Assembly: GCA_028534125.1 (NCBI GenBank)
Contig: CM052816.1
Location: 67,706,001-67,770,000 of the forward strand
Source of the DNA: Lama glama
Lineage: Eukaryota
Direction of reading: 5' to 3'
Length of the DNA: 64,000 nt
Shown here piece after piece: positions 16,445 through 45,274 of the stretch (position 1 is its first letter; every line of letters begins with the position of its first letter). A program made the translations under genes and the position numbers. The notes beneath the pieces are model-generated. The model saw nothing but the letters and a program-made list of their open reading frames with translations. It searched no databases and was not told where the DNA came from.

Positions 16445-16741
<297 letters not shown>

Positions 16742-18139
16742 CTAAAAAGATAACTGCTAAAAACTCCAATGATTTAAGCAAGATATGAAAATATCATTGT
16801 GAAACATATACTACTCTACTGTTGCATTTACAATGTGGATAGTGTTGAGTGTTGCCTGATAACGTGAGTTTAATGCCTATAAAAAGAAAGGTTCTATTTA
16901 GAAAGTGCATGCTTACTAATAGTATTAATGCAGACCTTTGTTTCTAGGTAGTTAATAAAATGCATCCTAAGACATTAAAGCACTGCATTAATACATTCAT
17001 GAAAACTGCATTGTTTCTAATTATACCACTCTAGCATGCTCAAGTATATTAGAGACAAATGTTTAGAAGAGTATTTTCTGCTCTTTACCCCAGATTCCCA
17101 ATAATTTAAGTTAATACAGATAAAATCTGGTGAATATGCTCATTTTCTGAAATAAACTAAATAAGTATTTAATAAGCTAGGTGAAACCTAACTACACCTT
17201 CTATGACCTCACGATGTTTTTTCAAAGCCTAAATGATTTAATTTGTTTTCTCAGAACATGATAAAGCACTTGGGGTACTCTATATGTAGAGAGTAAAAAT
17301 TATCTGATACAAAAATTTTGATCTTTATTCCATATATAATGTGGCGTTATCAGAATGAAATAACCTACAAGCTGGTAACTTCTGAGAACTAATTCTACAA
17401 ACTAATTTTACCTAATGGGTAAAACATCCACAAATTTCAGAATACACTCATATCCATATGCAGATCTATATGCAACACAATATATATAGGTATGGATTTT
17501 AAAACTTGGTTTATAAGAAACAGTTAAAGCACTGCATTCTGGGGGAAGTAACAATTTTTAAAATACTAAGCTAACTTCAGTAACTATTTTGGAAATTCTA
17601 TAAGGCTACAGAAATTTTTTTTTTATAACACTGATAGGAAAAGGAAATAGTCAAGGAAATACCAGAGACGATAACCACCAGCTCACCAAAAAGTCAAATT
17701 CAAAATCCTGTAGGAATTTTCCACTAATCCTAACTATAAAGCATGAGTATTTTCAGAGAACCAGCAAAAAAAAAAAACAAAAAAAAACAAAAAAAAAAAC
17801 AAAAAAAAAACTACTTAAAACGAAATATGCACTAGAAAGGAAATAGTTAACTAGTTCTACAGAAGCATCAGTACTGTAAGGGGAGAGGAAACCAGTATGT
17901 TAAATACCTCTGTGCCAGAGACTAGCCTAGATATTTTTAAAGAATGCAAAGAACACATAACATTTGAAACTTGCAAATGGGCATTAAAATGATTTCTACC
18001 ACACATATAAAAATTGTCACAAAGAAAGAGGCAATATGAGAAGGAAGGAAGGGAATTTGATTTTCTTATTTACTTAGAACTGTTTGGCTATTTTTCCTGT
18101 TCTGAATATATCATAAAGTGTAAATGTTAGGGGTGGATC

Positions 18140-18328
18140 AGGAGGGAGGGAAGGGGAGAAGAAAGGAAGAGGGGAAGAAGAGACAGGAGAGAGAGAAGGG
18201 AGAGGTGGCCGAGAGGGTGAGGGAAAGGAAGGAAGCAGAAAAGAAGGGAGAAGAGGTTGGGAAGGGTGGAGGGAGGAGGGAGGAGGGAGAGGTGGAGGGA
18301 GTAGAGAGGACAGAGAGAGAGAGAGAAA
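18140..18328. repeat. Low-complexity purine (GA-rich) tract
   Basis: ~190 nt of almost exclusively G/A on the + strand. Confidence 0.9.
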
Positions 18329-19084
18329 TGTTTTCTCAGTTTATCCTGCTTAGTCAATACTTATCCAGGGACGCTCAGATTTATATAGGCAACCAAATTT
18401 ATGGGCTGACTGCATACTAAAAATTTACTCCCAACTCTGGTTTGAAAAGCACTCCCCCTGACCCCCTCCCCCCAGTAACAATGTTATAAGGTGGGGCTAG
18501 GTTCCCAGGCTAGTTCTCAAAATAAGTCACCCTGTAGAACTGCAGTGCATTTGTACAGGAGAAACTCCTGTACTCCCTGACAAAGGTGCTTGTGCTTCCC
18601 ATTGATCCTAAAAGTCTCTCCTCCCCTAAATTTGCTTTATGAGTATCTCTTCTAAGTTCTGTATTTTCAGTCTCCTTCCCTGGTACCCACTCTAACACAC
18701 AGAGGACTCGCCTATCTAAACAAATCTTCCTGAATGATGTGGCCTCCTTAATGTTAGCATGATTTGCCTCTTCTTTCCACTTGTTTGAAAAATACTATAA
18801 TCTTTCAAGCCTATTTCTTATTATAAAGAACAGAGGATGAACATAGTAGTAGCTTAACTTTTAACTATTGCACACATCTAAGATTATTTCTTTAGAATAA
18901 ATGCCCTGAAATGGAATTACTGGGTCAAAATGTACACAAATTAAGACTTCTGGTAATACTGACAAATTATCTTCAAGAAAATACATCTTCCATTCACAAC
19001 ACCCAGGTCAAGTTGCCAATTTAGCTGGTCTGAATTAGTGATAGACTCCTAAGGGGCTCCTTCACTTTGAATTTTACTCCAATC

Positions 19085-19578
19085 CAGACTTCAGAGCAGC
19101 CAAGGTCACTTCCCCATTAAAAGTCTCCCCCTGGGGTTTTCCCCCTGGGGTTAGACTAAAATTCAAAATGTTATGGCCTATGAAACCCTGCACCAACTGG
19201 TCTTACCTCAGCTGAAGTCACCCAGAACCCACCTCTGCTCACCCTTCTGTTTTTTTCATTGCCTAGAAAACTCCAACATCTTTCCTGGCTCAGGTCTTTT
19301 GCACAGGCTGTTTCTTCTCTACTTTTCACCTCATTAATTTAGCTTTTCTTCAACTCCTTAGAGACATTCCCAGTCTCAGTTAGGAACCCCTAGTTCCATT
19401 TTTTTTCTTAGCTCTGTTCTTTAAAGTGCTCATTGCAATTTGCAAACCTGTAACAACCGCCCCCCCCCCAACACACTCCACGAGGGCAGGGACAACTGCT
19501 TCATCTGAGGCTGTATAACCAGTATCTAACCATGTCTGGCTTACAACAGGTATTAAAACAATTATCAAATGAATGATC
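19085..19578 (+). mobile_element. L2 3' end fragment
   Basis: tttgcacaggctgtttct...ctccacgagggcagggac...aaatgaatga terminal motif. Confidence 0.6.
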
Positions 19579-19782
19579 ATTTATTAACATCTTTGCCAGC
19601 CCTAAGGGCCTTCCCAGTTTTAAAACTTAATGAGTATTCATGTTATTTAATCTTTCTCTAGTTCTGTATTTAATTAAGACTAGGTTCGCAGTTTAGATGT
19701 TATTCTGTAGAACAATTTTTGTCGTTTCTAAATTGATCTGCAAATATAAACCTAAGTGTTTTTTCTAATGTCTTCATAATAA

Positions 19783-19963
19783 TTGTATATTATTAATTCT
19801 AAAATGTGCATTTTTCACACTTAATATCTCTGAAATCTGAATGCCTCTTATAATCAAATGTTGTTGTAATTTAATTGGCAGGATTTTATTTCCTTTCTTC
19901 ATGGTATACAAAATAGTGATACAATTTATAGCCAATGGGGTCTTCGATTAAATGAAATATACA
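19783..19963. mobile_element. MER104-like Tc2 MITE
   Basis: ttctaaaatgtgcatttttcacacttaatatctctgaaatc...gtcttcgattaaatgaaatatacag with degenerate inverted ends. Confidence 0.45.
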
Positions 19964-22222
19964 GTGAATCCTTTCTGCTTGTCAGGAAAAAAACCATACC
20001 TGAGTACTGAGTTTCATTTATCTCTGAAACTGAAACCAAATGGGGAAGAAAAACAAGTTTTTCTTAGATACTTTTATGTTTTGTTACAGTCCTAACATAT
20101 AGTCTTTATGGATCAGACATATACAGGTTTTTTTCTTTTTACCAGATATATGTATGTGTGGGTGCATGTATACAGCAGTGATTTGTCATCTTATCTAATT
20201 AATATCATAGCTATAGTAGGAAACTTTTTTTTAAAACACAAACTAATCTAAACAGATAGCTGCATGAGTGTTTAGGAGAGTTATTTTTGCCCCATCTATT
20301 ACCTAGAACCACACTTGTTATTTCAACTAAAATAATAGCTTGTATATTTCTGTCTTTTTAGCAAAGCAAACATACATATTTTGGGAAATACTTTGAAGAC
20401 TTAAAAATAAACAATAAAATTTTAGCCAGATAATTATAAGAAACTTAAACATTGCTACAGATTAAGCTTTATCCTCCTTTCCTGTTTATTTAGAAAACAT
20501 GAGGTTTCTTGCTTTTTTTGGTTTCTAAACATTCCTCAGAATGAATCTGTGATTGACCTAAACTTCAAAGCTTTTCCGCCTGAGATTAGGCTGTCTCTTT
20601 CTAGACCTATACAGTTTGCCTGCTAAAAAATGAGATGGTTCAATGGCCCCTCCTCAATGATGCCACTTGACCCTCCCTTTATATGACCCACTGTGGCACC
20701 AGGAATTGTTGACTGGACTGTCACTCTTGCAGATCTCCCTTCCCTTGTTTTGTAGGAGATGGTTTTTCCCTACTTTTGCTTCTAACACTCTGACTAACCT
20801 CATTAGTATCATATACTAGACCCTCTTCCTGGAGCCCCTTAAATGTCAGCCACTGTCCTCTTCTTACAGCACTAAAATATTCCATTTATAAGCGTACTAA
20901 GATATTTCATACCCCTCTGCCTTTGCAGATGATTTGTTTCCTGAACAGGAATACACTTTTTGTCATCTCATATGCCTTCAGTAAAGAATTTCCTACCACC
21001 ATTCTACAGCAGTTAGCCACTCCCTCCCAGTATGCTTATATTAATTATCACACAGCAGAAACTCAAGTATCTGCTGAAGTATCTGCTTCCCTCACCACAT
21101 CAGGAGCTCTTCTGGGACAGGTTACCCCATCTTATTCATTCTTCTATCATCAGTGCCAAATGTCCTGGTCTAGCCACAAAAGGCACCCTACACGAGGTCA
21201 GAGGGCCTATCCAGCCACAGCCGCCTCCCGGATGAGGGCAGTGTCTGATGCTTGGGGCACCATTCTTTACACATTTGAACCCAGCCTGCAGTCCACAGTT
21301 GGTTGGTGCAAGAATGTGCCCTGATCTAAAGACCTTCTACACTGGATGCTGCTGTACCTCTTAACTAGACTCTTTCTCTATGGGGGTTTAAACACAAGAT
21401 CCATGGATAGTGGGTCACTGCAGGAAAAATGGCCACCAAAACTGAGGAAAAGAGAAAAGTAGTAACTAGCAGCAATAAGAGAGAAATAAGGGAGAAGAGA
21501 GGGAAGTTAGTCAGAAGGAAGATGTGGTTAGAGACGGGAAGAAGGGAAGAAGCAATAAAAGTAAACATAAGAGTTGTATTGTACCTGGGCCCCTGCTATG
21601 CTGTTAGACAACTGGTGCTACTTTCCTACCTCCCTGGGTGGTGAAGCCCTATGTTCCCGTTCCCTGGAGGCCGCATGTATGCGCGGCAGGGCAGTGGAGG
21701 GAAGTAAACTCTCATGTGTCTTTTGTCCCTGCAACCCCAAAGAGCCTGACTAAAACATTAACTCAGCACACTCCCTGACCCAGAGGACATTCAATAAACA
21801 CTGAAAAACATACTCCTACCAAGTTTACCATAATTTCTTTAAAGTATTTCTTAAATGGTTCATCTTTAGCATGAAAATATGTTAGCCAACAACTAGTGAT
21901 TGGAGAAGTAACTGCCAGACATATCATAACCAAAAAAGTAAATGTTACGTGTCAGGCAAGGTGTTAGGTGTTTTATGAGTATAAACTGTACCCTCCCAAC
22001 AACCCTATCAAGTCATTACCACCTAAGGCTTGGAGAGGCTGGGTTACATGCCCAGGGTCACACAGTTGGTAAGCAGCAGGGACAGGATTCAAACTCCAGT
22101 GGATCAGCCTCTGAAGCCTGTGCCCTTAACTGGCCACTGTCAAATCTGATTTTGTACAACAAATTGGCATCGGATATCTATGTTGATATCTATTGATGAG
22201 AATACAAAGAAGTTTAAACATG

Positions 22223-24141
22223 TTATTTATTTATTTATTTGTTTTAGTTGCTTTAATTTTTTTTAACATTTTATTGAGTTATAGTCATTTTACAATGTTG
22301 TGTCAAATTCCAGCATAGAGCACAATTTTTCACTTATACATGAACACACATTCATTGTCACATTTTTTGTCACTGTGAGCTACCACAAGATCTTGTATAT
22401 ATTTCCCTGTGCTATACAGTATAATCTTGTTTATCTATTCTACATATGCCTATCAGTATTTACAAATTTTGAAATCCTACTCTGTCCCTTCCCATCCCCT
22501 GCCCCCTTGGCAACCACAAGTTTGTATTCTATGTCTATGAGTCTGTTTCTGTTTTGTATTTATTTATTTATTTATTTTTGATTCCACATATAAGCGATCT
22601 CATATGGTATTTTTCTTTCTCTTTCTGGCTTACTTCACTTAGAATGACATTCTCTAGGGACATCCATGTTGCTGCAAAATGGCATTATGTTGTCTTTTTA
22701 TGGCTGAATAGTATTCCACTGTATAAATATACCACAGCTTCTTTATCCAGTCAGCTGTTGATGGACATTTAGGCTGCTTCCATGTCTTGTCTATTGTAAA
22801 TGATGCTGCTATGAACATTGTGAAGTAGGGTTCCATCTGGATATATGCCTAGGAGCAGGATTCCTGCGTCATATGGTAAGTCTATTCCTACTCTTTTGAG
22901 GAATCTCCATACTGTTTTCCAGTGGCTGCACCAAACTGCATTCCCACCAGCAGTGTAGGAGGGTTCCCTTTTCTCCACAGCCTCTCCAGCATTTGTCATT
23001 TGTGGACTTTTGAATGATGGCCATTCTGACTGGTGTGAGGTGATATCTCATCATAGTTTTGATTTGCCTTTTTCTGATAATTAGTGATATTGAGCCTTTT
23101 TTCATGCGCCTATTGATCATTTGTATTTCTTCCTTGGAGAATTGCTTGTTTAGGTCTTCTGCCTAAACAAGCAAAATTTTTGGATTGGGCTGTTTGTTTT
23201 TTTCTTATCAAGTCGTATGAGCTGCTTATATATTCTGGAGATCAAGCCTTTGTCAGTTTCATCATTTGCAAAAATTTTCTCCCATTCCTTAGGTTGTCAT
23301 TTTGTTTTACTTATTGTTTCCTTTGCTGTACAGAAGCTTGTAAGTTTAATTAGGTCCCATTTGTTTATTCTTGCTTTTATTTCTATTGCTTGGGTAGACT
23401 GTCCTAGGAGAACATTTTTGAGATGTATGTCAGATAATGTTTTGCCTATGTTTTCTTCTAGGAGGTTTATTGTATCTTGTCTTATGCTTAAGTCTTTGAT
23501 CCATTTTGAGTTTATTTTTGTGTATGGTGTAAAGGAGTGTTCTAGGTTCATTGATTTACATGCTGCTGTCCAGTTTTCCCAAAACCACTTGCTGAAGAGA
23601 CTGTCTGTATTTTGTTGTGTATTCTTGCCTCCTTTGTCGAAGATTAGTTGACCAAAAGTTTGTGGGTTCATTCCTGGGCTCTCTTATTATGTTCCATTGG
23701 TCCATATGTCTGTTTTTGTACCAATACCATGCTGTCTTGATGACTGTAGCTCTATAGTATTGTCTGAAGTCTGGGAGAGTTATTCCTCCAGCCCTTCTTT
23801 TTCTTAATGCTTTGGCAATTCTAGGTCTTTTGTGATTCCATATAAATTTTATTATGATCTGTTCTAGTTCTGTGAAATATGTCCTGGGTAATTTGATAGG
23901 GATTGCATTAAATCTGTAGATTGCCTTGGGCAGTATGACCATTTTAACAATATTGATTCTTCCAATCCAGGAGCATGGGATATCTTTCCCTTTTTTAAAG
24001 TCTTTTTTAATTTCCTTCATCAATGGTTTATAGTACTCCTTGTGTAATTCTTTCACCTCCTTTATTCCTAGGTATTTTATTACTTTGGGTGCTATTTTAA
24101 AGGGGATTGTCTCTTTACTTTCTTTTTCTGTTGATTCATCA
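22223..24141 (-). mobile_element. Relatively young 5'-truncated L1 (~1.9 kb; frameshifted ORF2 C-terminus plus 3' UTR) with TSD
   Basis: ORF2 peptides ([55 protein letters not shown]) in shifting frames. A-rich tail at 22223. TSD core ttaaacatg at 22214-22222 and 24142-24150. TT/AAAA endonuclease site at ~24153-24158. Confidence 0.95.
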
Positions 24142-27100
24142 TTAAACATGACTTTTAAATGGTGAGTTTTACTATAAGAATTAAAGAAGCACATTAATTC
24201 TATTCATTAGTAGAGCACTTTGCTATAATAGGAGTAACAAAGACTATAATGATCATACGAAACTTTTCTGGAAATTAAGGGGGTTTAACCCTAGAGTACA
24301 TAAAGATATCTGGAACAGTTTAGATTATGGATAACTTTATATAAGAGAATCTCAATTCTCTCAGTGTCTGGGTAATGTCAAACAACACTGGAAAATACAC
24401 TGAATTATTTGGGACAGGCAAAATTCAGAGCCACTCAACTGAGGTCTACTTGTGAAGCTCTTAGCAGCAGGAATTCATATACTAAAACCCATAAGCTTTG
24501 TTACTCAGAGGAGCGACAGCAAGGGAGGAACTCTCTCCCAAAACAAAACTAGACTATGGTGGGACCCTTAAAATTTAAGTTTCCAGGTGAAAGGCAAGAG
24601 AAGGAATGACTTTGGTAAGGATGAGGAGAGTGTGATGAATCATAAAGGCTAACAATAGAGGCTAACAGTCCTTTACCATGGCCAGGGCACTGTGCTAACA
24701 GTGCCATGTGGGTCATCTCAGTCAGTTCCCATGAAAATAGGACTCTTCTCATGAGAGTGGGACTCTTGCTATCCCATCCACAGATAAGAAGAAAAGCAGG
24801 GAGGTTTATGTCCAAGGTGATAAAGTATAGGTGAAAAATACAGGATTTAAACTCAGATGAATGATTTCCAGGGCAGAAGGAAAATTAATATTTACAAGTG
24901 CTTAAAATTTGCTGACCTAGATCTGAGGCCAAAAAATCTGTATCTCAGTCCTGGAACACTATTTTCCCTTAAGATAATTTCTCCAGAGATATACTGTCAT
25001 TGGCAACTGTTGGCCTTTTCCCTCTTCTAAGCACGGATTAAATAAAATCATTGGTAAGGGCAACCCTTCCATCTTTATGTAATGCAACATTTATAACATA
25101 TCCAATTTTACATAAGAATAATATGTAGAAGTGGCTCATATTATGAAAATTATCTCTAAGGGATTTCATTCCAGGTTATGCTCAGTAATGTTTAGCCCTG
25201 AGAACTAAGGATGGCACAATACCTATTTATTTATACTGAGAAACAGGCTCCCCCACCCCAGTACAGAGTAGACATCTTCTCTTTAGCACAACAAAGGACT
25301 CTCGTTTTCTTAATATGAATATAGCCATGGTATAGTCAGTTTTATATTGAATCTCTACCAGAATCTTTATCAGAGGGAGAAAACTATTTCTAGTATTGTG
25401 TGCAAACCTTCCTATTCAGTCATTTGAAGGATACAGGCAAAGAATTTCATCCCCCAAAAAGCTCATTGTTATGTTCTGGTTAGTTACATCAAAAGTTAGC
25501 TAATATGGAGATCAAATAACAAAGACAACAATATAGCTTATTATCAACAATGATTATAAGCAGTTTAATTCTGCCTTACTGATTTTGATTGATTCACATT
25601 TATAAATTGTTCTAAACTGATTTGTACATACTAAAAATCAATTTGTCTGATATCATGAATTAGTTTCTATTAAAATATCAGTGCATTTGAATTTTAAGAT
25701 AATAATTATTCTCCAGCAAAAATTACAGGATTCTGAAAAGTAGAACATGGTATAAAAGCTTAAGTATGTATGAAATTAACCAAAATTAAACCATAAGGAT
25801 TAGTGGCTAATCATACTGTAAATACTAGCTGACCTAGGTCAACCTAGACAAGGAAAGTGGAAGTTCTTTGAGGGCAGGACCTTTCCCCTGGCATGTCTGG
25901 CAGCCACAAACAAAGCACCCAGAGCAACAGATGCCATGAGCTTGATAAGCAATTGATGATTTGGAGTTGGAGTAGCTGGTTATCACTTCCAGTCAACAGA
26001 GATCTGGGAAGTAACACTGCAGATGTTGTGCCCAGCACATGTAACGGACACACACACAGCCTGTTTAACCCATAACCTCTACCACAAATGAGTGCCTTTT
26101 GGACACATAAACAATTTCAAAAAGAATAGGAAGAATCAAAAGGCTTTCTACTTCTAAATTAGTAATCAAAAAAGATTGGTTTAATATCACCATACAAATA
26201 TAGTAACAAAGAATTTACAAAACACAGAGAGCTACTAGACAGTATCAAACCATTCTTACAGGTAACAACAATATAGAAGGATTTTTTTGGGAGTCAGTTA
26301 CCTCTGACCAAGTCTATGCAATAAACTACCTATCTCAAAGCCTCCCTTTAAAGAACACAAGTGAATCAAAAAGAAAACTGTATTTTAGCTGTATAATGTT
26401 TCTGTATTTTTTATATGTATATGCTAGAAATGTATGAATATACTTAAAGCAATTGATATGCTACAGAATATTGAATAAACTCTAAGGAATTGATTAGTAA
26501 ATTATTTCTTGTAATTACAATAGTGTGCTACAAATTCAGATACCATTAAAAAACATTTTTTAAATGTACATAAGATACTGATAACTACCAATTAGGACAT
26601 ATTTTATGATTAACAGGATATATTAAATGAAGAAAAAAAGACTCTAGGTTTCAAGAATCACATTTTTGTTTAATTCTGTAATTACATGATATTCAGTGTT
26701 ACTTTGGCTCTGTGGAGTAACACTGAATATCATGTAATTTAATCACTGATGACATCACTCTCTCATGGAACCAAATAGTCCATCCAAATCTGGAAAAAAG
26801 AATAATTCTTCCTTCTAAATATGCTAAGACATGAACATAAAAATCATCAAATTAATATAAGTATGAAACTAATTATGTGTACTTTATCAAGCTGGGGGAT
26901 ACATAACAATCAAATATATTTACTGACAAGTGTGTAACTGACCAGTCAAGAAAATGTCAAACTGCAATAGAAATTAAAACTCACCAGGAGGAAAAGATAA
27001 TTCAGACAGCTCAAATACACAGCAAAATTCAAGGGGAAGTAGCTATGCAGAGATTAGCTAGACTATTAAAATTGGTAAGAATTTTAAAGAAAACTAAAGG

Positions 27101-28612
27101 AAATAAGATGTATCAAGTTAGGTTAGGAAGGACATGAAAATTCTAGAAGATTGGTAATTTGAAATCAGAAAATACTGTTTTTAAAAAAAGCAGTCAAGGA
27201 GAACCAGAGTTGAAGGCAGGCATCTCTTCAAGTTAACACCCCTTATGTGTGCGCATAAAAGAAAACAAATCAGACTTAAGTGAAACCAACATGTTGTCAG
27301 TTCTGTAATGTCTTAAGACTCAAGTTCAATGAAATTCACTGACTTGTCACAAATTATGAACTAAAAATTTGATGGCAGTATTTATGTAGACAAGTAAAAA
27401 TTGTAAAAATGGCCAGAATTGGACAGAAATGAGTTTTGTGATTTTGTAAGATTCACCACCTCACAAAATACATGAAAATCTTAGTGACAGAAAAACAGTA
27501 AGTGCACTTCTGTTATCGGTGACAGACAAAACAAATGGACTAACAAGTTACCAGCTGTTACTGGAACATTTACTACTTTAAGTATTTTTCAAAAATACTT
27601 CTCTTACTCCTCAAAGTAATCACTTCTGTAACAAAATTTCTAAATATTACTATTCTTCCACCCATCTTTCCATGGGAAAAATTCACACTATTCTCACTCA
27701 CAAATTCAGAAGATGTATAGGTCTAATGTAAACCACTTTCTGAGAGCCAGTGTTTACAGGGGACAGTTTAAGACCAAAATGGTCCCATTTCTCATTATTT
27801 CTCTCCAATATAAACCCATGAAAGCTTGAAATACTTTTAATCCTGTAGGCCTGTATTCTTTTGATATTCAATGCTAAAAATTCCACTGTTTATTCCTTCC
27901 TTTGTTGTGTCCTTGATAACTGACGAAGAACCTTTAGCAACCATTGGGGAAAAAAAGGGACGTATGAGCATCCTCTTCCTTAACTGTTGAATATAGATCA
28001 GTAAGCAAGGAAAAGGATGCTACTTTTTTTCATAGTATTTGGCTAAATGTGTATTTCCTTTCAAGAATTCCCCTTTCATGCTACTTGACAAACCTAGGGT
28101 TGGGAATGTGTAAAAGACAACTGATACATAAATGTAAGTGAGCTTTTTCACTACATAGAGAAGTAGATCACAACTCCCTACACCAATACTGGGGCAGTTT
28201 TCAGCAAAGCAGTGTCCTGTCCTGTCCTCCATCTAAGGGCACTGGTACATAATTCATGGCACAAAGCAGGTATTCCAAGGGGAAGAAGATGGCTGCTCCT
28301 TCACCATTTGGGGTTTCATCAGAAAGATCCCAAGTCAGTGTTGGGCAGGGTAGGGGTAGGGGGTCTGATATGTTTTCCTTTGGAACCTCCTCCAATGGGA
28401 GTGCAGCTACATTTTTACAAGTCAATTATTTTGAAAGAAATGTGGCAGCTCAGTTTAAGTATTCTAAGCGATCAAATGAACAAAGCTAATAATTGGGAAA
28501 TTGATCTGTTACTGTACATGTTCCCTTCCTCCATAGTTTAAGAAAAGAGGTTTAGAGTTTAAAATGTCACATTTTGAGTACCTTTTATGTTAATAAACAC
28601 CTTTGGATTATT

Positions 28613-28881
28613 ATTTTTTTTAGTTATATATCATTTAATTATGTTTATTTAATTTTTTAAACATTTTTATTGATTTATAATCATTTTACAATGTTGTGTC
28701 AAATTCCAGTATAGAGCACAATTTTTTAGTTGTACATGAACATATATATATTCATTGTCACATTTTTTCTCTGTGAGCTACCATAAGATCTTGTGTATAT
28801 TTCCCTGTGCTATACAGTATCATCTTGTTTATCTGTTCTACAATTTTGAAATCCCATCTATCCCTTCCCACCCTCCGCCCT
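28613..28881 (-). mobile_element. Short L1 3' end insertion, same family as 22223-24141, with 12-bp TSD
   Basis: Closely similar to 22270-22500 (tcattttacaatgttgtgtcaaattccag...). TSD ctttggattatt at 28601-28612 and 28882-28893, followed by a canonical endonuclease site. Confidence 0.92.
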
Positions 28882-30829
28882 CTTTGGATTATTTTTAATG
28901 TTCCCAGATTAATGGAGGAAAAGGCATATAGTGCTGAATTAGAGCACAAAGTCTTCTACAGCCTTTGCTAGGAGAATGATTTCTTCCAAATCCTGTGGAA
29001 CAGCTAGCACCATTTCAACAGTACTTCCCTCTAGCTGGTGGAAAGGCACGTTAACTGGGATGCTCAGAATAAGGAAAAACGACTTCCTGACAAATGTAAC
29101 TTTCCTTCTCTATGCTTTTTGCTAGAAAACCTCTCTGCTCAACGAATGCTGGCATGCCTACTACACGTAAGCCCTGGGCTAGGCAACAGAGATACAAATA
29201 CAAAGTGGGATAAAGAAACAAAAGATAAATAGGACAGCCCTCTATCCCTCTAGGTGCTTAGTCTAGCAGAACAGAGAAAACAGATGCCAGCTCTGATATA
29301 ATAGAAGTATTTTAATACATCATAAATAGTTGCAAGGATGGAGTGGATCTCCATCCTTAATTTTATCTAGGGGAATCCTGGAAAGATCTATAGGTACAGG
29401 TGCAGTTCTGTTACCAGTGACAGACAAAAATGGACTGAACAAGTTACCAGCTGTTACTGGAATGTTTACTACTTTAAGTATTTTTCAAAAATACTTTTCT
29501 CTACTCATCAAAGTAATCACTTCCGTAACAACCTACTGTAATGCCTGAATAATTTTAAAGAAAAGAACAGGACTGGCAGGCATGGATCTGATGAAGGCTG
29601 AAATATTTTCTTAACAAAAGAAACAGCTTTAGTGAAAATAATGTTCTATAAAATACTAAACAGCTTATAATTCTGCTGTTTAGGAAACACTAGGTAAAAT
29701 AGTTAAATGCATTTATTTAAAGACCTCTGTGCATCATACTTCTCCAAGTGAGAAAAAGAAAAGGAAAAAAAAAGAAGGTACACAGCATTCTTCACACTTA
29801 TTTACTTATATGGCACGGAAGTCCTTTTTAGCAGAACACCTCTGACAGAGTAGTAGTCCTTGAATTAAACTGTGAGAAAGCTCTACTGGATCATCTCTAG
29901 AGTCCTTTCTGATTCAAATTAGTCAGTAGGTTTAAGAAGAAAAGTCCAGAGAAGAAACTAACACCAGCTGTTTTAATGTCTTAATATATGACTTCCCAAG
30001 CTATCATAAAATTCAGCGATTGTCTTTAGAGCAACTGACACTCCAAGAATTTGAAATATGGGGAAAAAGATTATTTGACAGCCAGCTAGAGACGGGTATA
30101 TTCACCTGGTACAAACCCCATCCTAAGAGAAGTGGGTGTCAGACATTCAAACTTGGCCCAGTCTAACCACTAGCAGAGGCCAGAGTCTGTCACTAAGATT
30201 TGCTCCTGGCCCAGTCCACTTACTCTCTGCCAAAGACTTAGGTCTGGGGTGAAGACAAAGAAGACATTAGCCAAAAAAACCAAAAACCGCCTGACAAGCT
30301 ATTTTCTTTAAAAATCTTTAAATGTCTAGAGGAAAGCCCCAGAATATGAAATAAAAAAGGGGCCTGGGGCACAGTCCTCACTCCACTGCAAAGCCCTGGA
30401 GCGCTGGTGCAGCAGGAGCACCCATGGTCGCCCCCACTGACAGCAGCACTCCTGGCGGTGTCTGCTGGGAAGCAGGTCAGGCGGGAAGCAGCATCAATGC
30501 CCAGCAGAGGCAGTGAGACCAATGTGGCTGAAGGAGGCGAGGGCAAGGGCTGAGGAGGCAGTGTTGTTCAGGGGCAGCAATAGGGAACTGACCAAATTCA
30601 TACACCGGTGCATGGGCAGCCCACACTGGAGAGTTTAGGAAGAGGAGGGTTGTCTCTTAGGGGTATTGAGGGTAACGGCCAAACCAGTAAAATCTGGGTT
30701 GTATCCACAACAAAATCAAAAGGGCTTCTTGTTCAACAAAGATGACATAACTTGAAGGACACGTTCCTAGGATAGGGTAGATAAAGAAGTCATACCACAA
30801 ACATAATCAAGATGTATGGCATGGAGATC

Positions 30830-31480
30830 AGTGGCATGAGTTCTGGAGCTAGAATGCCTGGGTTCAAATCCAAGGTTTGACACCTACTAGCCATATGGCT
30901 CTGGCCCAAGTTATTTAACCCCTCTGTACCTCAATTCCCTCACTAAGAAAAGGATAATAACACCCACCACATGAAGTGGCTATTAGGATTAAATAAGTCA
31001 GTATGTAAAGTGCTTAAAAGGAAGTTCACCTCCCTAATTTCCTCCCATTAATTTCTTCTGTAAAATGGAGGCAATAGCTAATATTTATGATGCACTTCCT
31101 ACGTGCCTTTCATTTTACGCCCTTTACTTACAGTTCTCACCTCATAGAGTTTTAAAATGAATAAACATGGATGAAGCACTTCAAACAGTGCCAAGTGTGC
31201 GATAAGCACACAATAATGGAACCTCCATGACCACCACAGTCATCACTGTTTCTGCTGCTGCCGCTCCTCTTCACGGAGCACCTCCCCTGTGCTAGGTACT
31301 GCGCCAGGTGCCGCCAACACACGGCCCGAAGTCTCCCACACGGCAAGACACATAGTCTCCACTGCGCAGATAAAGGAACTCTTACAGCGAGATTAAGGGA
31401 CTTGACTAAGAATCCACGGTGAGTGGGGATTCTGAGTTTCAAAACCAGGTCTCTCTGGCTTCAAAGCCTTGTGCTCTTCC
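30830..31480. mobile_element. Cluster of MIR SINE fragments
   Basis: MIR core motifs: gcctgggttcaaatcc, aagttatttaacccctctgtacctcaattccctca, tctgtaaaatgg, cagataaaggaact. Confidence 0.7.
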
Positions 31481-34400
31481 TGCTAGTCTCTGTTGCTTGG
31501 TAATTTCCTGTAACATGAAAGTCAAAAAACAGATGAAAACAGCAAAATACAACTATGTTTCTAGTTTCGGGAGGTAACAGTGTTGACTCATCTGGAGTGA
31601 GACACCTGGCTGTACAAGGCTGCTACGGGTGCAGGGAGGGAGGGAGACCAAGGAGGTTCTAACTGCTGCTTCAATAATCGATTCTTCACAGACCTAACTG
31701 CAGCAAATATAATAAAATATTACCATTTATTAGCCACAGGTGAAGGTTTTATATTATTCTATAATACTTTTCCTCTGTATTTTTCTGTATGGTTGAAATA
31801 TTTCCTTAAAAATAAACATGTGGTACTGAATTATTACTCTCTACATTGTGGGAGGCTTCATGGAACCAAAGTAAAATAATAGAGGACTGGGGAGTCCGGA
31901 GATTCAGAGTCAAATCCTAACTAGGCCATTAACCAGCTACATAGTCTTAAATAATTCACAACATTTCTGGAGTACAAGAACTTACAACTCCCAGGAGGAA
32001 CATTCAAGGAAGGAGAGACCACAAAACATAGAGTTTAAGGTTGTTGTTTTTTTATTTTTTTTTACACTGTAAACATTAACTTTTCTAGCCTTCTTTTTGT
32101 TTTTCATGAAAGAACTACAAATTTCTCTTCCTTAAAAGACACATAACCATTCGGCATATTTAAGTGTGATGAGTCAAAAAGATCTGAAGTATGCCAGAAA
32201 TGAGAAATGAAGGCTGGTGGTGCTCTGGCCAAGTCTCAGCTCCAGTCGTGACAAGTTTCCAATCTGAATTCTAACTTCCCCAGCCCAGGGCTCTCTGCAG
32301 CCACACAGCATGCTTTTCCCATAATCTGCTTTCATAATTTCAGAGACGCTTAATCTGTGTCAAATCACAAAGGCGATGGTTTACTTTTTTTTTAAAAGGA
32401 GAAAAGCTGGGATAGTGTAAACATTTAATGAGTCATTCTGAGTGCTAATCTGAAAACACAATTACTGTTAAAATATTTTTGCTTTTGTATTGTTAAAAAT
32501 CATAATGTTCTCAGAGAATGCTTGCAATTCAGCCAATTAATACTCCTTATTTAAGTAACATGAGTCAATGTCACTGCAACTTATTTACTTACTTTTTTCA
32601 TTTTACTTTTAAGATCTACTCTCTTAGACACAATTTACTCTTTAAACTGAAAAACAGAAACAAAAACAAAAAACCCAGTGACTCAACTTTGGTGAATTAC
32701 ATCTAGTGTTCAGGCTATAAGCCTGACATATTTGGGTTAGACAACATAAACATTTTATATGGAATGAATTGTAACACCGTACACTATGTATTTTGTTTGT
32801 TACTTACTTCAGGATTTTAATACACAGCATTATCCTTCAGTGGGCTGTACAATTAATCTGTCTAATCAGCAAGTATAAACCAACCTAGCATACACTTCAC
32901 CTCCTCTTACAGAAATTACTCTTACACAGTCTGCTAAACAAGTGGAAAAGCTGGAGACAATTGACGCCTAGCAACATATTAAGCCAAAACACCACAAATG
33001 TGCCAATTAACTGCAGATAATGGCTATGTGAAATTCTCAAATGAAATATTTTACTTCTGATACTGGTGTATTTGCTAGTGTTCTCGTTTTCAACCTTTCA
33101 TAGAGAGGAACTACCAAAAAGTATCACATGGTTTACTGTGAAGTAGGTATCTGGATCTGCAGGATAACCTTAGGAATCTCCCCAAGTGACCTATGGCCAA
33201 GCTGTGACCAAACAATCTCTGTACTAATATCCCCAGTAGATCCTCAATCCCCTTCAGTTATTCCTTGGAATCATTTCTTCCTAACCATTTGCTCACCCAT
33301 TCCTATTCCTATATATTCCATATATCCATCTTAAAACAAACAATAAACCTTTGGGGCAGTGAATACATTAAAATAATGGAAAGGTTTTGAAGCTTCCAAA
33401 GTGCTGAATCATGTTTACGTTTCAGTTTTATTTTGGTTTTATTTTAACTGGTTTTGGAGGCACAAGCTCCCTCTAAGAATATTAGCCACCCTAGTTAATC
33501 CACTGAAAGATGGGACCAGGGGTGAATCTAACTTCTTTGTTTACTGTCTGTCATAAACTACCTATTGGAGTTAACTATAGCACACAGTTGGAGAAACTAA
33601 GAATTCAAAGTGAGACAACACTCTAGGAATGGAATGGGAGGGAAGAAAAAATATCTTCATTCAGTAGGTGGCACTCTTTCCTTAAAAATGCAACTTAGGC
33701 AACTACTAATATCAAAGATGTCATCTGCCCTCTAATCACTTGAAAGAGAAGCCACAGGAATTCTGATACCCTGTCCCAAATATCGTCTGAATCATTATTT
33801 TCTGTCTACCTAAATGTCTTCTCATTTCAATGGAATTCTGGAGGTGTTCATAAATATGCCAATTTCTTTTCACTGTAGCAAAAGGTACAATTTAGTAGAA
33901 CCAATTGCATTTATTTTAAACTGGCAGGTTTTGACTTATAATTTAGCCTGGTATATATGCTTCAAAAGATATTCATCCTAACTATTTTCCAATTTTAATG
34001 AGTTATAAAATAATCTGAATGGAAATGTGACAAAGGACTGTACCTATAATATGTAAATTATATTATTGTTTTATTCTCGTTTTAAGACATAACAGCAACT
34101 CTTTTTTTCAAAAGCATGCATGTGAATATTCTTTGTAACCAGAAAAACTTTGACTCAACTTTGACTTCATTGTCATTCTGGCTGATACTTAACCTCAAAC
34201 TTTTAAGTTGAAAAACAGAAACAAAGCAGGCAATTAATAAAATGTGAGTTTATCAGTACACAAAGGGAGCAAAACATAAAAATAAAACTTGCCTGGTTTT
34301 CCTTAGATATATCTCTTGGTCTCAATACCCTGTAGTTCCTACCTCTTCACTCAAGTTCCAGGGTCACCCTTTCCTTGGAGAAACTATCCCAGATGCAGCC

Positions 34401-37400
34401 TTGGCCTTCCGCATTGCTCACGGCCCCTCTAACTCAGTCAGGCGTGAGGAAAGGTCTTCCTCTGCCCTAACTCAGCAAATAGCACTCTGTTATAATGGCT
34501 TCTTACTTATCTGTCTCCCACATTTGACTAAGATCCTTGAGGGCAAAAGTGGGTCTTAACTTTATGTTCCCGCCCTAGCAGAAAATCTGGCACATGGCAG
34601 ATACTAAATAAACATGCACTGAAAAAAGGAACAGACTGATCTTTCCCCTCGGGCTGTGTTTTACTTGAGAACAAGGCCTGTGTCTTACTCATCCACCACT
34701 TTACAGCGGTGACTCTTAATGCTTGGTACTTGTACATGGCAGGTTGTGAGGAAGCAACATCCTTCCAATATGAGTCTCCAGACCAGAAAGATCTCTAAGA
34801 TATAAATAAGCTTCGCTAAGGCCCTTATATAAACCAAGTCCCCACCATTAATTCTAGGGGCACTGCAGAAAGAGAGAGGAGCTGGGAATACCAGTAAGAT
34901 TACCAGTAAAAGTGACAGATTTCATCCCCAGTAAAACATTAAGAGATGGTCAATAAGAGAAGCCCCAAACTATGAGCCTAGACACATGTATTTCAGTGAA
35001 AAAAACACTATCCCATAACTTTGGAATTTGTCCGTGTCTTTAATTTTGTTAATGCCTATTGATTTTTCTGTAGCTAATAGAAAGAAAACATCCTGGAGAA
35101 AACCCCAGAAGATTTCGTGTCTGGGAGGGGAAAGGCAGAAGCCACAAGACTACATCCCACTAGGAAGCAACCTGAGTGGGAGAAAGGGAACTAGCTGAGG
35201 GGGTCAGTGATTAGGGTGCCTCCAGGGAAGGGACAGCACTAAAACCCCAAATCCAAACTCCTCACACCTGGATTCTCCTAGTTTGGGGGAAACAGCTGGC
35301 AGGATGCATCTGAAACCACATCGTAAGTATGAAAAATAGAGCATCTACTTTTAGAATGTAAATTTTATTTCAAGATTTGGGAGAGGGGTGCAGTGATAGT
35401 TCTGTGTTAAAAATACAAGTATGACTAAAAGGTAAAATTCAAATAATTAAGGTAAACTCTGAAAACTAGGGACTTGAATCAATTTTGTTCAGTGTTCCCC
35501 GGAGGGCAGGCTGCAGAGCAGGCTCCTGGGTACTTTCTCTTCAGCAGAAGTTTGCTGAATGGATGACCAGAACATAATTTATCTATGGCACAACCACTAG
35601 CCACACATAAGTAATAAGTCACCCTCTACTTGAAGCAGAGATAAACTGCATTAACTGCCAAGTATCAGCAATATCTCTACCAAGAAAGTCTATCAGTTAT
35701 GCAAGATAATGAACAATATTTATAGGGCTATTTCTAAATATGCCCTAAATTATTTTTCTAAAAAGAAATCATTTAAAAATATTGATATTTTATTATTACC
35801 AAGAAAGTATTCTTGGATCACCTCCCCTGGTTTATCACCACACCACGCCTTCAACATCAAAATCTGACTGGCTACCAGTCAGGTATGCTCACACCCAAGT
35901 TAACACGGAACCTGGACAGTATTTCTGTGCAGTAACGACAACTGACAATTAGGAAGAGGGTAGAGAGATGCAACAGCCACCAGAAGGCTTCGACAGAAAG
36001 CAATCTTCTGAACACATGGACCAGGAAGGTCACTTTAGTGTTCAGGTCATCCTAAGGGAAGGCCACAAAACATGAAAAAAAACGTGCAAGTAGAAACCAT
36101 GAAATGGGTTCCAAGAACACTTACAACCACATTTTTGTGAAACCGTAATGCCTATGAGAACAGGGATTTCTGTCTGTTTCATCACTGCTGTATTCCTAGT
36201 GCCTGGCATGTAGCCAATTCTTTATAAATTTCTTGAGTGTGTGACTATTTTGTTATACCATGAGCAATAATAGTTTAAACACAGAAAACTCCTACCAACA
36301 TCTTCTATAACCATGGCAAACTTTCAATCACAGGCTGGCTTCCTAGTCACTATGTGGTCAAGTACCTTCCAAGCTCCCTCGAGACATGTCAGTATTTCTG
36401 AAAACCACACCCAGTAAAACTCAGGTTTTAAAAACCGACCTTGCCTCCTCTCTTTGCTCCATCTCTTCAGCCTAATGAATATTCTTCTATCTTCTTGCCT
36501 TAAAACAAAACCCAACCAACCTAACCCCCAAACACTTCTTTACCTTTGCAAATCCTTGGGCTTCCTGCCTCTCTTCCCCTCCATCCTCCTCCAGCTTCTC
36601 AAGAGGAGTCATGCTTCCTCACCACCCTGTCATCCCTTAAGGAAGCACAGTGGCTCCAACGTCCATCATTCCACTGAAACTGTTGGTCTTGAGACAGTCC
36701 CTGCTGCTCTTGGTCCTGCCCAGTGGGATAGCTACTGCTGACCATTTTCTTCTTGGGTAAAATTCTCTCCTTTACCTCTCAGGTGTCATCTGTCCTGCAG
36801 GTTCCTCTCTGCTCTCTTCCAGGAAATCCTGGCACTCCTCAGAGGGAGGAATCTGAGCTAGAATTCCCCACCCTGCTTTCAGAGGTATGGATATGAGCCT
36901 GGGCCTACCTATCAAGGAATTAAAATTGCCTATTCATTCCTCATCCTTGGCAATTGACTCTGAGCAACTCAAGATTCAACTGAGCAAAGCTGTCATTAGA
37001 GAGAAACACTGTAAGGAACCATGAAACCTGAATCCCAGAGGTGGAATCACTATCAGTAAGACATAAAACTAAACATAGTTTACTTTCTGCAAGTTGTTTA
37101 ATTAAAAGCTGTATATAATTATAATACATATAATAAAATCATTTTCGGGAGTCTGACACTGAATCATTCTGGATTTTTTTTGAGGGGAGTCAACTCAACA
37201 TTTTTATTAAGAGGTCTTTCTTACAAGTACAACAGTGTTTCTTTCTTCATCTTTTTCCTTCATTGCCTACCCTAAAAGGACAATCAGCAGGCAGCATTTA
37301 TGAAGATGTCCTCATATCCAGTATATACAAGAATGCTGTCAAATCCAGGTAGAACCTACAGGTTATCCCTCAGTTTTCTCCAAGAGCGTCTCTTGAAACT

Positions 37401-38274
37401 AGTTACCAGTAATCAATAACTCACTAGAGAACACAACTGAATTATCTTGTTACTCCCCCAGCTCTTATCTGGGGATCAGCTCCTAGCACAGTAGTGTACA
37501 CACAGTATGTCAGTAAACATTACTGAGTTTGAAGAGACAGTATAAGTTTCCATAAGCAGTACATATATAAGATTTCTGGGACAGCAAACACATTACTATT
37601 ATTAATTTAAGAAAACAAAATAATGGAATAGTAGAGACATAGTTAAGGGCACAGATATTTATCTTGTCTTAAAGGAGATTTCAGTTTTACCTGAGTGACC
37701 TTTCTATAGTTAAACTCAAAGATAATCTCCTTTGTTGGAAAGGCATAGAGTCAGGGAGATTACTGAATTCTGTCAGAGCCAGTAAGCTCTTGTAATTATT
37801 AAAGAAGATGCCTGCTGAACACAAATAGAGATCCCATACTTGATAAGCGGGCATTCATTAACTTATATTACTAGCAGAGAACAAACATCAGTAAGAGAAC
37901 AAACGAACTGAAGTTCATTTAGGCATAACTTCATATTGGATGCTGGCCCTAGAAATTAGTATCTTTACTCAAGTTAGTAAATAGGCACAACCAACAATCA
38001 AAACACACCAACTGAAAGAATGCTGAAGTCTGAATTTAGCTTTAATTTAAAACCACTGAATGAAATGAAAATCACTAGCTATTTTTTTCATGACCTATTT
38101 ATAAACAGCTCTAATAGCTATGTTTAGATGTAAGAAGTTTCAAAATGCCTGAGGTACCTGAGGCAGCTACCTCAGAGCAGGCACTAGGATGCTCAGGTGT
38201 GAGCCCAGGAAAAGGGGAAGAGGAGGGAGTATGTGTAGACATAGAGCAGAGAGCATCAGGAGTTCTGTTTTGTT

Positions 38275-38505
38275 TTAATTGAAGCACAGTCGATTTACAA
38301 GTGTTGTGTTAGTCTCTGGTATACAGCATAGTGATTCAGTTATACACATATGTGTATGTTCTTTTTTGTATTTTTCACTGTAAGTTACTACAAGATGTTG
38401 ACTATAGTTCCCTGTGCTGTACAGTAGGATCTTGTTACCTACTTTATACACAGTAGTTAGTATCTGCAAATTCCAAACTCCCAATTTATCCCTCCTCTCC
38501 CCCTG
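38275..38505 (-). mobile_element. L1 3' end fragment
   Basis: ttaattgaagcacagtcgatttacaagtgttgtgttagtctctggtatacagcatagtgattcagttatac, homologous to 1470-1700. Confidence 0.85.
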
Positions 38506-39483
38506 ACCGCCTCTTACTACTTCACTTGGCTGGAGAGGCCCCCTAACTTTTCTGAGGTATTCCCACCAACTGTAAAATGAGAATGATGCCTATGCCACAG
38601 GGCGAAAGCTCCCCAAGTGTTAGCAATGACCACCTCTATTGCACATGCACTCAAAGCACATCTCCCATTGTGGGCAAAGGTCTGTGCATTGAAGAAATTC
38701 AACCAAATCTGCACCCTGAACCTCTGTTCTTTTCTGACAGAGTAAACACACTGAAGCCTAATCTTGTGTTTACAACTGGTCTTATTTTATAGGAACTTCA
38801 CATAACAATGAAAAATGTGAAAATGTTTCACTTCTGTTTCCTGCATATTTTGGAAGATCTAAACATAATTTTAAAAATCATCACCAGGTATGATTTTTAC
38901 TTCAATAAAAGCCAAAAGAAGGAAACGAATAAGATGATGAAATCTGTGCTCTGATGTAACTCAAACCTATCTCCTGATTTAAAAAAAATACAAAAGTATG
39001 CATAAAAGAGTACAATCTTGGCATCGAACTGCCAGGGTTCACACCCAGGCTTCACCTCCTAGTAGTTGCCAAGTTAACTTGACCTCTCAGGGTCTCTGTT
39101 TTCTCATCTGTAAAATGGGAATAAAAACTGCACTTATGTCACAAGGATAGTACAAGGGTCACCCAATAGTACGGGGTCAGGAGTCACCCAATAGTATGAA
39201 GACAGGAAGTCAGCCTGGAGTAAAAAATATGCAGGTAATCTGACATGTAAAGAAGACTTGATCACAAATACAAACGCTATCAGTGTTCAAGAAATAATTT
39301 ATAAAATGAAGTTTATTTTTAATAAAGAACACAGAAATACAGGAAAAAGTGTGGATGCACTGGCTCTATAGGAACATTACTATAGCACAGAATTCTGTGT
39401 AAGTTGCTCACCAAAGATCCTGTAAAGACAGGTTCCAGCACAACCTGCCAGTATGGAATGAAAAGTCAGTACTAAGCAAGACT

Positions 39484-39506
39484 TGTGTGTGTGTGTGTGT
39501 GTGTGT
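39484..39506. repeat. (TG)11 microsatellite
   Basis: Directly visible. Confidence 0.95.
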
Positions 39507-42500: not shown

Positions 42501-42790
42501 GTCAGGAGTAATGACAGCACTGACAATGGGCACTCACCCTGGCATGTTTACTACCCTGCCCTTTCATTTTCTAGAAAGAACACCCACAGACCAGACAAAA
42601 AGATTTGGAATGACCCCACATCAGATGTGCTTGTTTTCCTACAACCCATCAGCTCCTGTGGAGGCCAGGCAGCTGATACAAACCTTGTGATGGACGTGTC
42701 TAGGCCGTGACCAGCTCTGTGCTTAAAGCACTTGAGCATGTTTGTTCTCTGACTTGAGATGGTCTTGGATTATTCTGGATGACAGCAATA

Positions 42791-42956
42791 CAGTCACCAT
42801 CCCCCCAACCCAGCCATAGCCACAGGACACTGATTCCAGGACCCCTTGAAGATAACAAAATCTGCAGCTGCTCAAGCCCTTATACTGTAAAACTGTGCGG
42901 TATGGTTCCTCTGGGTTCCCAAGAGCTCTGCAACCACAGACACTGAGGGCAGACTG
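42791..42956. mobile_element. MER2/Tigger-like MITE (internally deleted)
   Basis: ta|cagtc...ttccaggacccc...aaaatctgcagctgctcaagcccttata...gagggcagactg|ca; cagtc/gactg ends with one TA flank retained. Confidence 0.6.
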
Positions 42957-45274
42957 CAAGCTGCCTGGCACCAAAATGTCATCCTGAAACTGCACCTCTG
43001 AAATTTTAACACATATCAACAGAGAAATCTGACTCACTTTGCAATAATGTATAACTTTTCATAAACACTTGTTCAGTAAGGCATGACTGCATATGCGATT
43101 ACAAAGGAAAAACTAAAGAGGTTTAAAAGTGGCAAATCTAACTTAGGAACTTTAAATCAAAGAGTTCAGCAGAATTTACAATATAGTACTGACTTCTAGA
43201 AATAGCCACATTTATGTTTAGTAGAATATCAATAATTCTTCATTGCAAAGGGACTAAAACATATTTTTTAAAAATCTCACAGAAGAGACAAAATGATTAT
43301 TCCAGACATAAGAAACAACATTTAGCACATTGAGAAAAAAGGGCAAACTGGGGAAACAAAAACGAGACCTTGGCACTGAATGGCTGGAGCAGGGTGTTCT
43401 GGAAGGGGAGCTGAGAGGGGAGCAGAGCCCATTATCAGGAGCTTCTGAGCTACAGTAAGGAGTCTGGACTTTATTGTGAGGATGAAGAAAAGGTTTCATG
43501 GACAGAAATGTCAAGATCGGCCCTGCATTGTAGAAGACTCGCTCTAACTGCGGTGTAGAGAAAAGACCAAGAGGACACGTCCGAAGGCGGGAGGCTGGTT
43601 AGGAAGAAGACCTGCAAGAACTGGGATGAGGTGACAGGTGTGACCCTGGGTTAGCAGTTGTGGGGGTGGATTCCAAGGCTAGCGGACAACTGGCAACAAG
43701 AGAACTGGAGACTGACTGGATGCTGAGGATGAGAAAGCCAGAGGAGGAAGAGCATACCAATTAGGGAGATGGTGGCAGGGATTACCAATGGCACCTCAAA
43801 GGACCAGGAGATGTGAAGGGGAGGATGGAGAAGCTGAGAAGGTCAGGGATTCAGTTTGGACACGTGATGTCTGCAGTACCTGGCAGAGCTGTACCTCCTG
43901 GAGAAACTATCCCAGAGACAGTTGGATGCAGGGTTCTGTCATTGAAGCCGAGACATTTAGGCACCAAAATATTAATAAGAATAATTCAGCAAAGATACAG
44001 CTAATAATCTTCCAGTATATCTTATTTTCTTTAGTAAATGACTTTCTTTAAGAATCTTTGTACAAAACTTGAAATGTAGTTATTTAGGAATTTAGACCCT
44101 TGTTGCAAGAATAAGATCTGAAATAAATGAATTCGGGAACTTTCAAATATTTGAAAATTTAGTATGTGATAAAGCAGATACTTTTCATCAATAAACAGTG
44201 CTGGGACACCTAGTCAATCATTTGGAGAAAATAAAGTTAGGGCCCTATGTCACCCTTAAACTTCTGATGGATCAGAGACTAAAGTATTTTTTTAAAACCT
44301 ATAAAAATATAATTAGAAAAGGCTGGATAATCTTGCAGTAGGGAAGAATAATAGCTATTACCTATACAGTGTTCACCATGCACTGTTTTAAGAACTGGCT
44401 CAAACACTGTCCTCACAACAACTCTGAAGTAGTACCTTTATTTTACAGTTGAAGAAACTCAAGTGCAAAGAAGTTAAGTAGCATCCCAGGTACCCTGCTT
44501 GATAGTAGTGAAACTCTGACTAGTACTCGGGCATCTGCACTACACAGCACTCCCTCCCTAGAGGGTCAGTCTGTAAGACCTGAACACAGGAATAATAAAA
44601 CAAAGAACTGAAATTTGAAGACATATTTAAAGCTTCTTTATGAAAAATACTATAACTGAAATTCATAAATCATAACACAAAAGTGGAGGAAAACAATTCC
44701 AATAATGTGAGAGCTAATATTCTAATATACAAAGGATGCTTAAAAATCAGTAAGAAAAACAATTCTCTCTCATGTGTGAAAGGAAATGCACAAAAGGAGC
44801 TTGGAATTTTTAATAAACACAACTTGTAATATGATGCTAAAAAGCTAAGAAATGCAAGTTAAAATAATAAATCATCTTTCATCCACCACATTAGCAAAAA
44901 TGTAAGTCTGATAACATCCAGCGTTGGCAAGAATGTGGGGCAATGCACACTAGCATGTACTGTGAGGTAAATGTACACTGGCACAATGTTTTACAAAGCA
45001 ATTTGGCTATATGATAAAATTTAAAAATATGCATATCCTTTGACTCGGCAGTTTCACTTCTGAATATTTACTTAACAAAGCCAAATGCACAAACGTATGA
45101 AAATGTATATACAATGGTAGTAACTGCAGCTTAATGTAACAACCAAAAAGCAAACAATATAAATGTCTAGAAACAGGAAACTGGTTAATGAGACGGCCGA
45201 ATAATGGGATAGGATGCAGTTATTAAAAATGGCAGCTCTACGTTCATCATTAAGGTAACTAATAAAATACTATT

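Follow-up and report, generated by a model that had tools for sequence, protein, structure and literature searches.

Perfect hairpins within introns provide raw material for new microRNAs (miRNAs), and their appearance is usually ascribed to local template switching. A hairpin of this kind, present in intron 1 of MAP3K1 within the 64-kb stretch of DNA analysed here (the window), raises the questions of how such a structure was generated, how old it is and whether it functions as an RNA. As detailed below, the hairpin resembles a scar left by fold-back or template switching, which was probably linked to a templated insertion involving two loci. This kind of mutation is already known; what is new here is a match at a second locus.

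The hairpin and its host gene

The host gene, which we take to be MAP3K1 based on peptide motifs, is encoded on the minus strand, with the coding region of exon 1 at ~55455-54974 and exon 2 starting at ~16634. These positions place the hairpin mid-intron 1, as an earlier note on this DNA had proposed, and identify the minus strand as that of the pre-mRNA. The hairpin is consequently located inside a transcript, in the sense orientation. It is covered by a contig from an RNA library (run X11), although coverage alone does not show transcription. At the Rfam gathering score, the whole window yielded only two matches, both tRNA-like, at 45278-45349 and 62262-62332, and the first is followed by an A-rich tail. 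Both are probably tRNA-derived SINEs, not tRNA genes, and may be vic-1 elements. In SINEBase, vic-1 is given as a simple SINE of camels (PMC3531059), and the two matches would thus be in keeping with the camelid identity assumed in the earlier note.

The two arms of the hairpin (Table 1) are complementary at 24 of 24 positions and 12 nt apart, giving a total length of 60 nt, so that the perfect 24-bp stem and 12-nt loop described in the earlier note are confirmed. With the exception of an (AT)n run, no other perfect stem in the 64 kb exceeds 13 bp when loops of ≤50 nt are considered. The number of such stems expected by chance is 4.5e-8 per window, or 0.002-0.008 per 2.5 Gb, in agreement with the previous assertion that a chance origin is very unlikely. 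Folding of the hairpin in a 221-nt context gave z values of -4.5 (+ strand) and -5.5 (- strand), with none of 200 shuffled sequences (0/200) folding as well. A 4-nt repeat joins 26679-26682 and 26740-26743, in AT-rich sequence. No tandem repeat was found that overlaps the hairpin, and the three stop-free frames that cross it have no PDB or Pfam match at E values up to 10. A search of metagenomes with an 18-nt motif from the loop returned six loci, all attributable to chance as there was no similarity past 18-22 nt, and the same motif was found at no locus (0) in the viral search.

Table 1. Coordinates of the hairpin, of its host intron and of the sequences associated with its origin
Feature	Position	Strand	Evidence or remark
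MAP3K1 intron 1 (host; approximate limits)	16635..54973	-	exon 1 and exon 2 positions
Left arm; 3p in the sense (minus-strand) hairpin	26680..26703		sequence inspection
12-nt loop	26704..26715		folding; unpaired on the sense strand, 3 extra G-U pairs possible antisense
Right arm; 5p in the sense (minus-strand) hairpin	26716..26739		sequence inspection
7-nt direct repeat of 26733-26739	26677..26683	+	possible junction microhomology, or chance at 28% GC
Segment common to a second genomic locus	26692..26739	+	43/48 identical, no gaps; X19 contig of 2926 nt
Outer 12 nt of the left arm, unmatched at the second locus	26680..26691	+	putative fill-in product of a fold-back

Two local interpretations were evaluated and rejected. 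The hairpin is not a mirtron, as it is positioned mid-intron, its ends are not GU/AG splice sites and there are no joints in the compared runs. Similarly, the suggestion of an old quasi-palindrome immediately downstream, where 26740-26757 resembles the right arm, was dropped because 9% of local 40-mers score as highly, consistent with chance. On the minus strand, at ~26792-26805 and ~50 nt upstream of the hairpin, a run of pyrimidines leads into CAG in the manner of a 3′ splice site, but no joints were seen in the compared runs.

Other repeats are present in this region of the window. An inverted repeat at 23142-23174, with a perfect stem of 13 bp and a loop of 7 nt, edges what, judging from its translation, we take to be a LINE-1-like ORF2 fragment (~23150-24200). 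There is a two-copy tandem repeat of 37 nt with 80% identity at 26419-26494, 190 nt from the hairpin, and a direct local duplication of 135 nt with sharp edges, in which 27502-27634 and 29400-29531 are 90% identical and separated by 1.9 kb. Within each copy of the latter, inverted arms of 10 bp pair perfectly around a 1-nt loop, and the duplication is possibly another short templated copy.

Presence and age of the hairpin

Of 24 public runs listed, 19 contain part of the region 26300-27100, and four of the 24 (X19, X1, X11 and X20) were compared. Seven of the 24 have a library record, and none of these seven is from small RNA. The hairpin is covered in three of these four and all three carry it, with no difference listed. 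In X19, a whole-genome-sized run with the same species label as the best-matching run, 26300-27100 is present in one contig with six substitutions and an unchanged hairpin. In X1, from a related organism, a single contig again spans the region and differs over the 801 nt by 17 substitutions and 4 indels, none of which is located between 26624 and 26743. In X11, the RNA library, which has X1-like alleles, a 183-nt contig extends across the intact hairpin; in X20, available as raw reads, a single read was found and lies off the hairpin. Another haplotype of the species, as well as a related organism, thus carries the hairpin with identical letters, so that it is neither an assembly artefact nor species-specific. 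The earlier note had advised that raw long reads be consulted to detect such an artefact, and the contigs of three runs now argue against one. Its designation of the hairpin as recent does not hold, as the stem is unchanged in a relative that has diverged by ~2.6%.

The hairpin therefore predates the split of the window's species from the related organism of run X1. If that organism belongs to the other camelid tribe, as the 2.1% substitution suggests, the hairpin would be at least ~17 My old, based on the date published for the camelid tribe split (PMC12849490). Given 23 variant sites in 801 nt, the probability of no change is 0.17 for the 60 nt of the hairpin and 0.24 for the 48 nt of its arms, and the variant-free stretch of 120 nt around it is not significant (P 0.48). 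There is thus no sign of selection, and conservation of the hairpin does not exceed the neutral expectation (P about 0.2).

The X19 haplotype differs from the window at six sites in 801 nt, has a 16-nt deletion (26756-26771) just 3′ of the hairpin and has four alleles in common with the related organism of run X1. In X11, contig depth falls from ~14 to ~3 (14.4 vs 3.2) over 26459-26764, with holes on either side, a dip that is not centred on the stem. X1 has one unbroken contig where this dip occurs, and filtering or library bias could explain it.

A second locus shares 48 nucleotides with the hairpin

The X19 contigs revealed a second genomic locus, within a contig of 2,926 nt, that matches 48 of the 60 bases of the hairpin, namely all of the right arm and of the loop, plus the half of the left arm that adjoins the loop (Table 1). 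The contig is unlike the window for at least 255 nt on both sides of the match and has a depth of 16.1, as compared with 16.3 for the MAP3K1 contig, consistent with a single-copy sequence. A 48-nt match of this quality is expected by chance 4e-7 to 3e-5 times. Its right end is the exact outer edge of the stem, a coincidence with a probability of about 0.03-0.12 if the two edges were independent. In 5.1 million contigs totalling 2,002 million letters, it is the only other copy at 80% likeness, and a partial one. Two further partial matches in X19 are AT-rich and at chance level (38 nt with 6 mismatches, ~1-20 expected); their recovery indicates that the search was sensitive down to noise. The second locus was seen in X19 only, one of the four compared runs and the sole one of whole-genome size. 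It was not seen in the contigs of X1 and X11, which have far fewer letters (484 and 838 million, respectively, vs 2,002 million).

Hairpins of this type are common; 6,054 miRNA-sized stems attributed to template switching are reported from genic regions of the human lineage (PMC10710096). As the match was seen in one run, a purely local four-point template switch might be envisaged, with the second locus dismissed as a mis-assembly, a contaminant or an unrelated sequence. We consider this improbable. The match is too unlikely to be due to chance, and it is located inside a 2.9-kb contig of single-copy depth which, together with the five differing places, argues that the second locus is not a chimeric copy of the MAP3K1 locus. 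The simplest such model, a 17-nt fold-back insertion of the right arm, also fails, as the loop and right arm occur together elsewhere. With 48 nt of the hairpin present at a second locus, its origin is probably not purely local. The template-switch inverted duplication suggested in the earlier note is therefore upheld in part: a fold-back or template-switch origin fits, but a purely local one is improbable.

A proposed origin by capture and fold-back

We tentatively favour, with a little less than even confidence, an origin as a by-product of DNA repair in which a fragment from the second locus was folded back, filled in and ligated into the intron. First, a single-stranded piece of ~48 nt would have been copied from the other genomic locus. 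Its 3′ end, in the minus-strand orientation, would then have folded onto an inverted match of up to 12 bp within the fragment. Extension by a polymerase over the 12 nt left unpaired, as far as the 5′ end of the fragment, would have yielded a blunt and perfect 24-bp hairpin. Finally, this product would have been end-joined into a break in MAP3K1 intron 1, perhaps via the 4-7-nt repeats at the junctions, and the hairpin would since have been transcribed passively along with the intron. Although we infer the direction of transfer, the fill-in and the end joining, the geometry is there to be seen. The 48-mer alone folds into a 12-bp stem with a 12-nt single-stranded tail, a substrate for fill-in. 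With capture and fold-back, donor homology should run out where the stem does and 12 further bases should mirror the tail of the fragment, as is observed. As in distant inverted templated insertions, the other locus (in one run) covers one arm, the gap and part of the second arm.

There are precedents for these steps. In yeast, a distant insertion is often made up of two pieces that derive from the same donor locus and lie inverted to one another; of 23 complex insertions analysed in rad27 cells, 15 were inverted pairs with a single distant source. A single-stranded DNA of 69 nt that contains an 8-nt inverted microhomology was also found to fold back and to be captured at breaks (PMC11724301). 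Distant templated insertions also segregate in the human germline (PMC5110952). Several observations count against capture. The yeast precedent, as reported, comes mostly from replication mutants (PMC11724301), all three haplotypes compared carry the hairpin, and an empty site was not seen.

A further difficulty is the integrity of the stem. If all five mismatches arose after copying, the chance that none broke the MAP3K1 stem is ~0.05. This value rises to 0.17-0.31 if two or three of the mismatches were already present in an imperfect arm of the donor. The lower value hints that the stem was subsequently re-homogenised or has been under constraint.

Base composition does not settle the direction of transfer. 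The 48-mer has 35% GC and no CpG, and the intron flanks have 28% GC. The 30-nt flanks of the second locus have, by eye, 33 G+C in 60 and four CpG, the latter with P = 0.0003 at the rate of the intron. As these flanks are richer in GC and CpG than the intron, the second locus may be exonic, island-like or a young repeat. The GC content of the 48-mer falls between those of the two sets of flanks and, as a point against capture from the second locus, is slightly nearer to that of the intron if the mismatches add no G+C. The lower GC and CpG content of the 48-mer relative to the second-locus flanks (Fisher P 0.05 with the sequence as in the window, 0.44 if the five mismatches add G+C) would rather suit transfer in the reverse direction. 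A local template switch would then have made the hairpin, and a 48-nt piece of it, from extruded DNA or from intronic RNA, would later have patched a break at the second locus. The hairpin base is a natural breakpoint and so the coincidence of the edges is also explained, and templated insertions may derive from intronic sequence and from RNA (PMC5110952). This order of events would, however, require two separate rare events, and would place five changes in the 48-nt copy with none in the source stem (P about 0.05). The 30-nt loose ends have no target-site duplication or poly(A) that is apparent by eye. On balance, transfer from the intron appears unlikely.

Alternatively, both sites could be remnants of a small palindromic element, either MITE-like or a low-copy repeat, with the MAP3K1 copy having been perfected by quasi-palindrome correction. 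The end of an element would coincide with the end of the stem, and the 10% divergence of the copies, which exceeds the 2.1% between species (P = 0.003), would also be accommodated. In addition, 8 of 10 positions in the left flank of the second locus match the outer left arm, ~14 nt further out (identified by eye and post hoc, with a rough P of 0.01-0.08). However, only one other copy was present at 80% likeness in the 5.1 million contigs, there was none in the window and no target-site duplication is clear. A MITE with many copies was thus not found, only one partial copy in 2,002 million letters, although an old family with <80% identity would escape this search. We regard descent from such an element as distinctly unlikely.

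The geometry could also be read in terms of RNA. Read in the sense orientation, the common piece extends from the initial base of the stem as far as 26692. Argonaute slices opposite guide nucleotides 10/11, and slicing of the 3p arm would end the piece at 26690-26692 for 5′ starts at 26739-26737. The hairpin might accordingly be, or have been, cut from the MAP3K1 pre-mRNA as an endogenous shRNA, the second locus then being an RNA-templated fossil of a sliced intermediate. If so, selection would have preserved the perfect stem, and the copy would have diverged by 10% through drift. This is very improbable, and fold-back gives the same geometry with fewer assumptions.

Evidence for and against a functional RNA

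Whether the hairpin now works as an RNA, namely as a proto-miRNA, an endogenous shRNA or an ADAR substrate with its perfection kept by selection, is a matter of function and compatible with any model for its origin. The sense-oriented intronic position is that of 81 of the 99 intragenic miRNAs attributed to template switching (PMC10710096), the length of the sense hairpin, 58-62 nt, is pre-miRNA-like, the sequence is unchanged in three haplotypes, and there is a weak hint of excess perfection of the stem (P 0.05-0.3). Against this, conservation is not above neutral, there is no Rfam family at the hairpin at the gathering score, and only 57 (0.9%) of the 6,054 template-switch stems are reported to be in miRBase (PMC10710096). 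Structure also counts against it. The stem of a Microprocessor substrate is ~35 bp long, and DROSHA places its cut at a distance of 11 bp from the basal junction (PMC6298569). The stem here has 24 bp on the sense strand, and 27 bp antisense when G-U pairs are counted. A cut at the base of the stem would need a lower stem, which the flanks do not form; on the sense strand, flank pairing near the stem base has a probability of at most ~0.6, and in alternative folds only. Measured from the true junction, DROSHA would release a 36-nt product. None of the basal UG, CNNC and apical UGUG motifs, which are helpful but not obligatory, is present on the sense strand in the three registers inspected, and the antisense loop carries UGUG only. 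The hairpin would thus be too short for canonical DROSHA cutting and, as modelled, fails the structural tests of a canonical miRNA. The case for an miRNA is weak, given a 24-bp stem, no lower stem, no basal UG or CNNC and a seed that is exposed only if cutting occurs 2 nt from the base of the stem. Present function as an RNA of any of these kinds appears highly doubtful.

The earlier note had offered a nascent miRNA as one option, based on a 22/22 duplex with the miR-141/200a seed. This option receives no positive support, as the duplex leaves 2 bp of lower stem as compared with the 11 bp measured by DROSHA, and the doubts that the note itself raised, the absence of a lower stem and the dependence of the seed on register, were well founded. 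The 8-nt identity with alpaca miR-141 is real, but it exists only in the register chosen, as the first 8 nt of one possible 3p product, in a register that is incompatible with DROSHA. There is no identity past nucleotide 8. Seven occurrences of the seed 8-mer are present in the window, two of them in the hairpin, vs 2.5 expected. With the number of seed families taken as 100-220, a random hairpin would expose some conserved seed in some register with a probability of 0.06-0.39. The mir-8/200 family is also absent from the 15 Rfam matches obtained around the hairpin at E values up to 10. The best of these matches are structural: MIR2630 was rejected, with 30.7 bits against 144, as was mir-1297, with 30.1 against 84 and 12 nt in common at the loop that were judged to be chance. 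As judged from its sequence, the hairpin is not a member of the miR-141/200a family.

Published data were similarly negative. The arm motifs were not found in the main texts of papers, and a literature search for a novel intronic miRNA with MAP3K1 as host gene found nothing. In the readable supplements of a small-RNA study of alpaca skin, in which novel miRNAs were called on the bovine genome, the arm motifs are absent and the miR-141 control is present. Five camel small-RNA supplements also lack the arm motifs but are uninformative, as the miR-141/200a control is missing too, and the sole match to the seed 8-mer in them was in long transcript sequence. No A-to-G majority variant, as might be generated by ADAR, was present in the stem in the RNA-type contig sets X1 and X11, a weak negative because contigs drop minority variants.

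Implications and comparison with known systems

If capture followed by fold-back is correct, the MAP3K1 intron contains a natural germline hairpin whose starting material was a fragment taken from elsewhere in the genome. This route has been shown at induced breaks in yeast, and is missed by alignment methods that consider local templates only. It suggests a simple genome-wide count, namely of orphan perfect hairpins for which one and a half arms are matched at another site. No consequence for MAP3K1 or for camelid biology is evident.

Three documented systems are most similar. The distant inverted templated insertions described by Yu et al. 2024 (PMC11724301) likewise have two inverted pieces from one distant donor, a short gap and a donor that remains intact, with fold-back in a short single-stranded DNA and short junction microhomology. 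They were reported, however, at induced breaks in yeast, mainly in rad27 and RPA mutants, whereas the MAP3K1 case would be an old event, fixed in a mammalian germline, with a putative direction of transfer. The miRNA-like hairpins generated by template switching, as reported by Monttinen et al. 2023 (PMC10710096), also have a perfect stem that results from one event and a loop of at least 10 nt, and are sense-intronic and, as far as tested, lineage-restricted. In that report the templates are local only, whereas the MAP3K1 hairpin is mostly common to another locus, has a 24-bp stem with no lower stem and is known from sequence alone. The class 2 templated sequence insertion polymorphisms reported by Onozawa and Aplan 2016 (PMC5110952) are also short copies of distant sequences that have no poly(A) and junctions of the end-joining type; in contrast, the MAP3K1 hairpin is non-polymorphic in the haplotypes compared and has, in addition, an apparent inverted fill-in.
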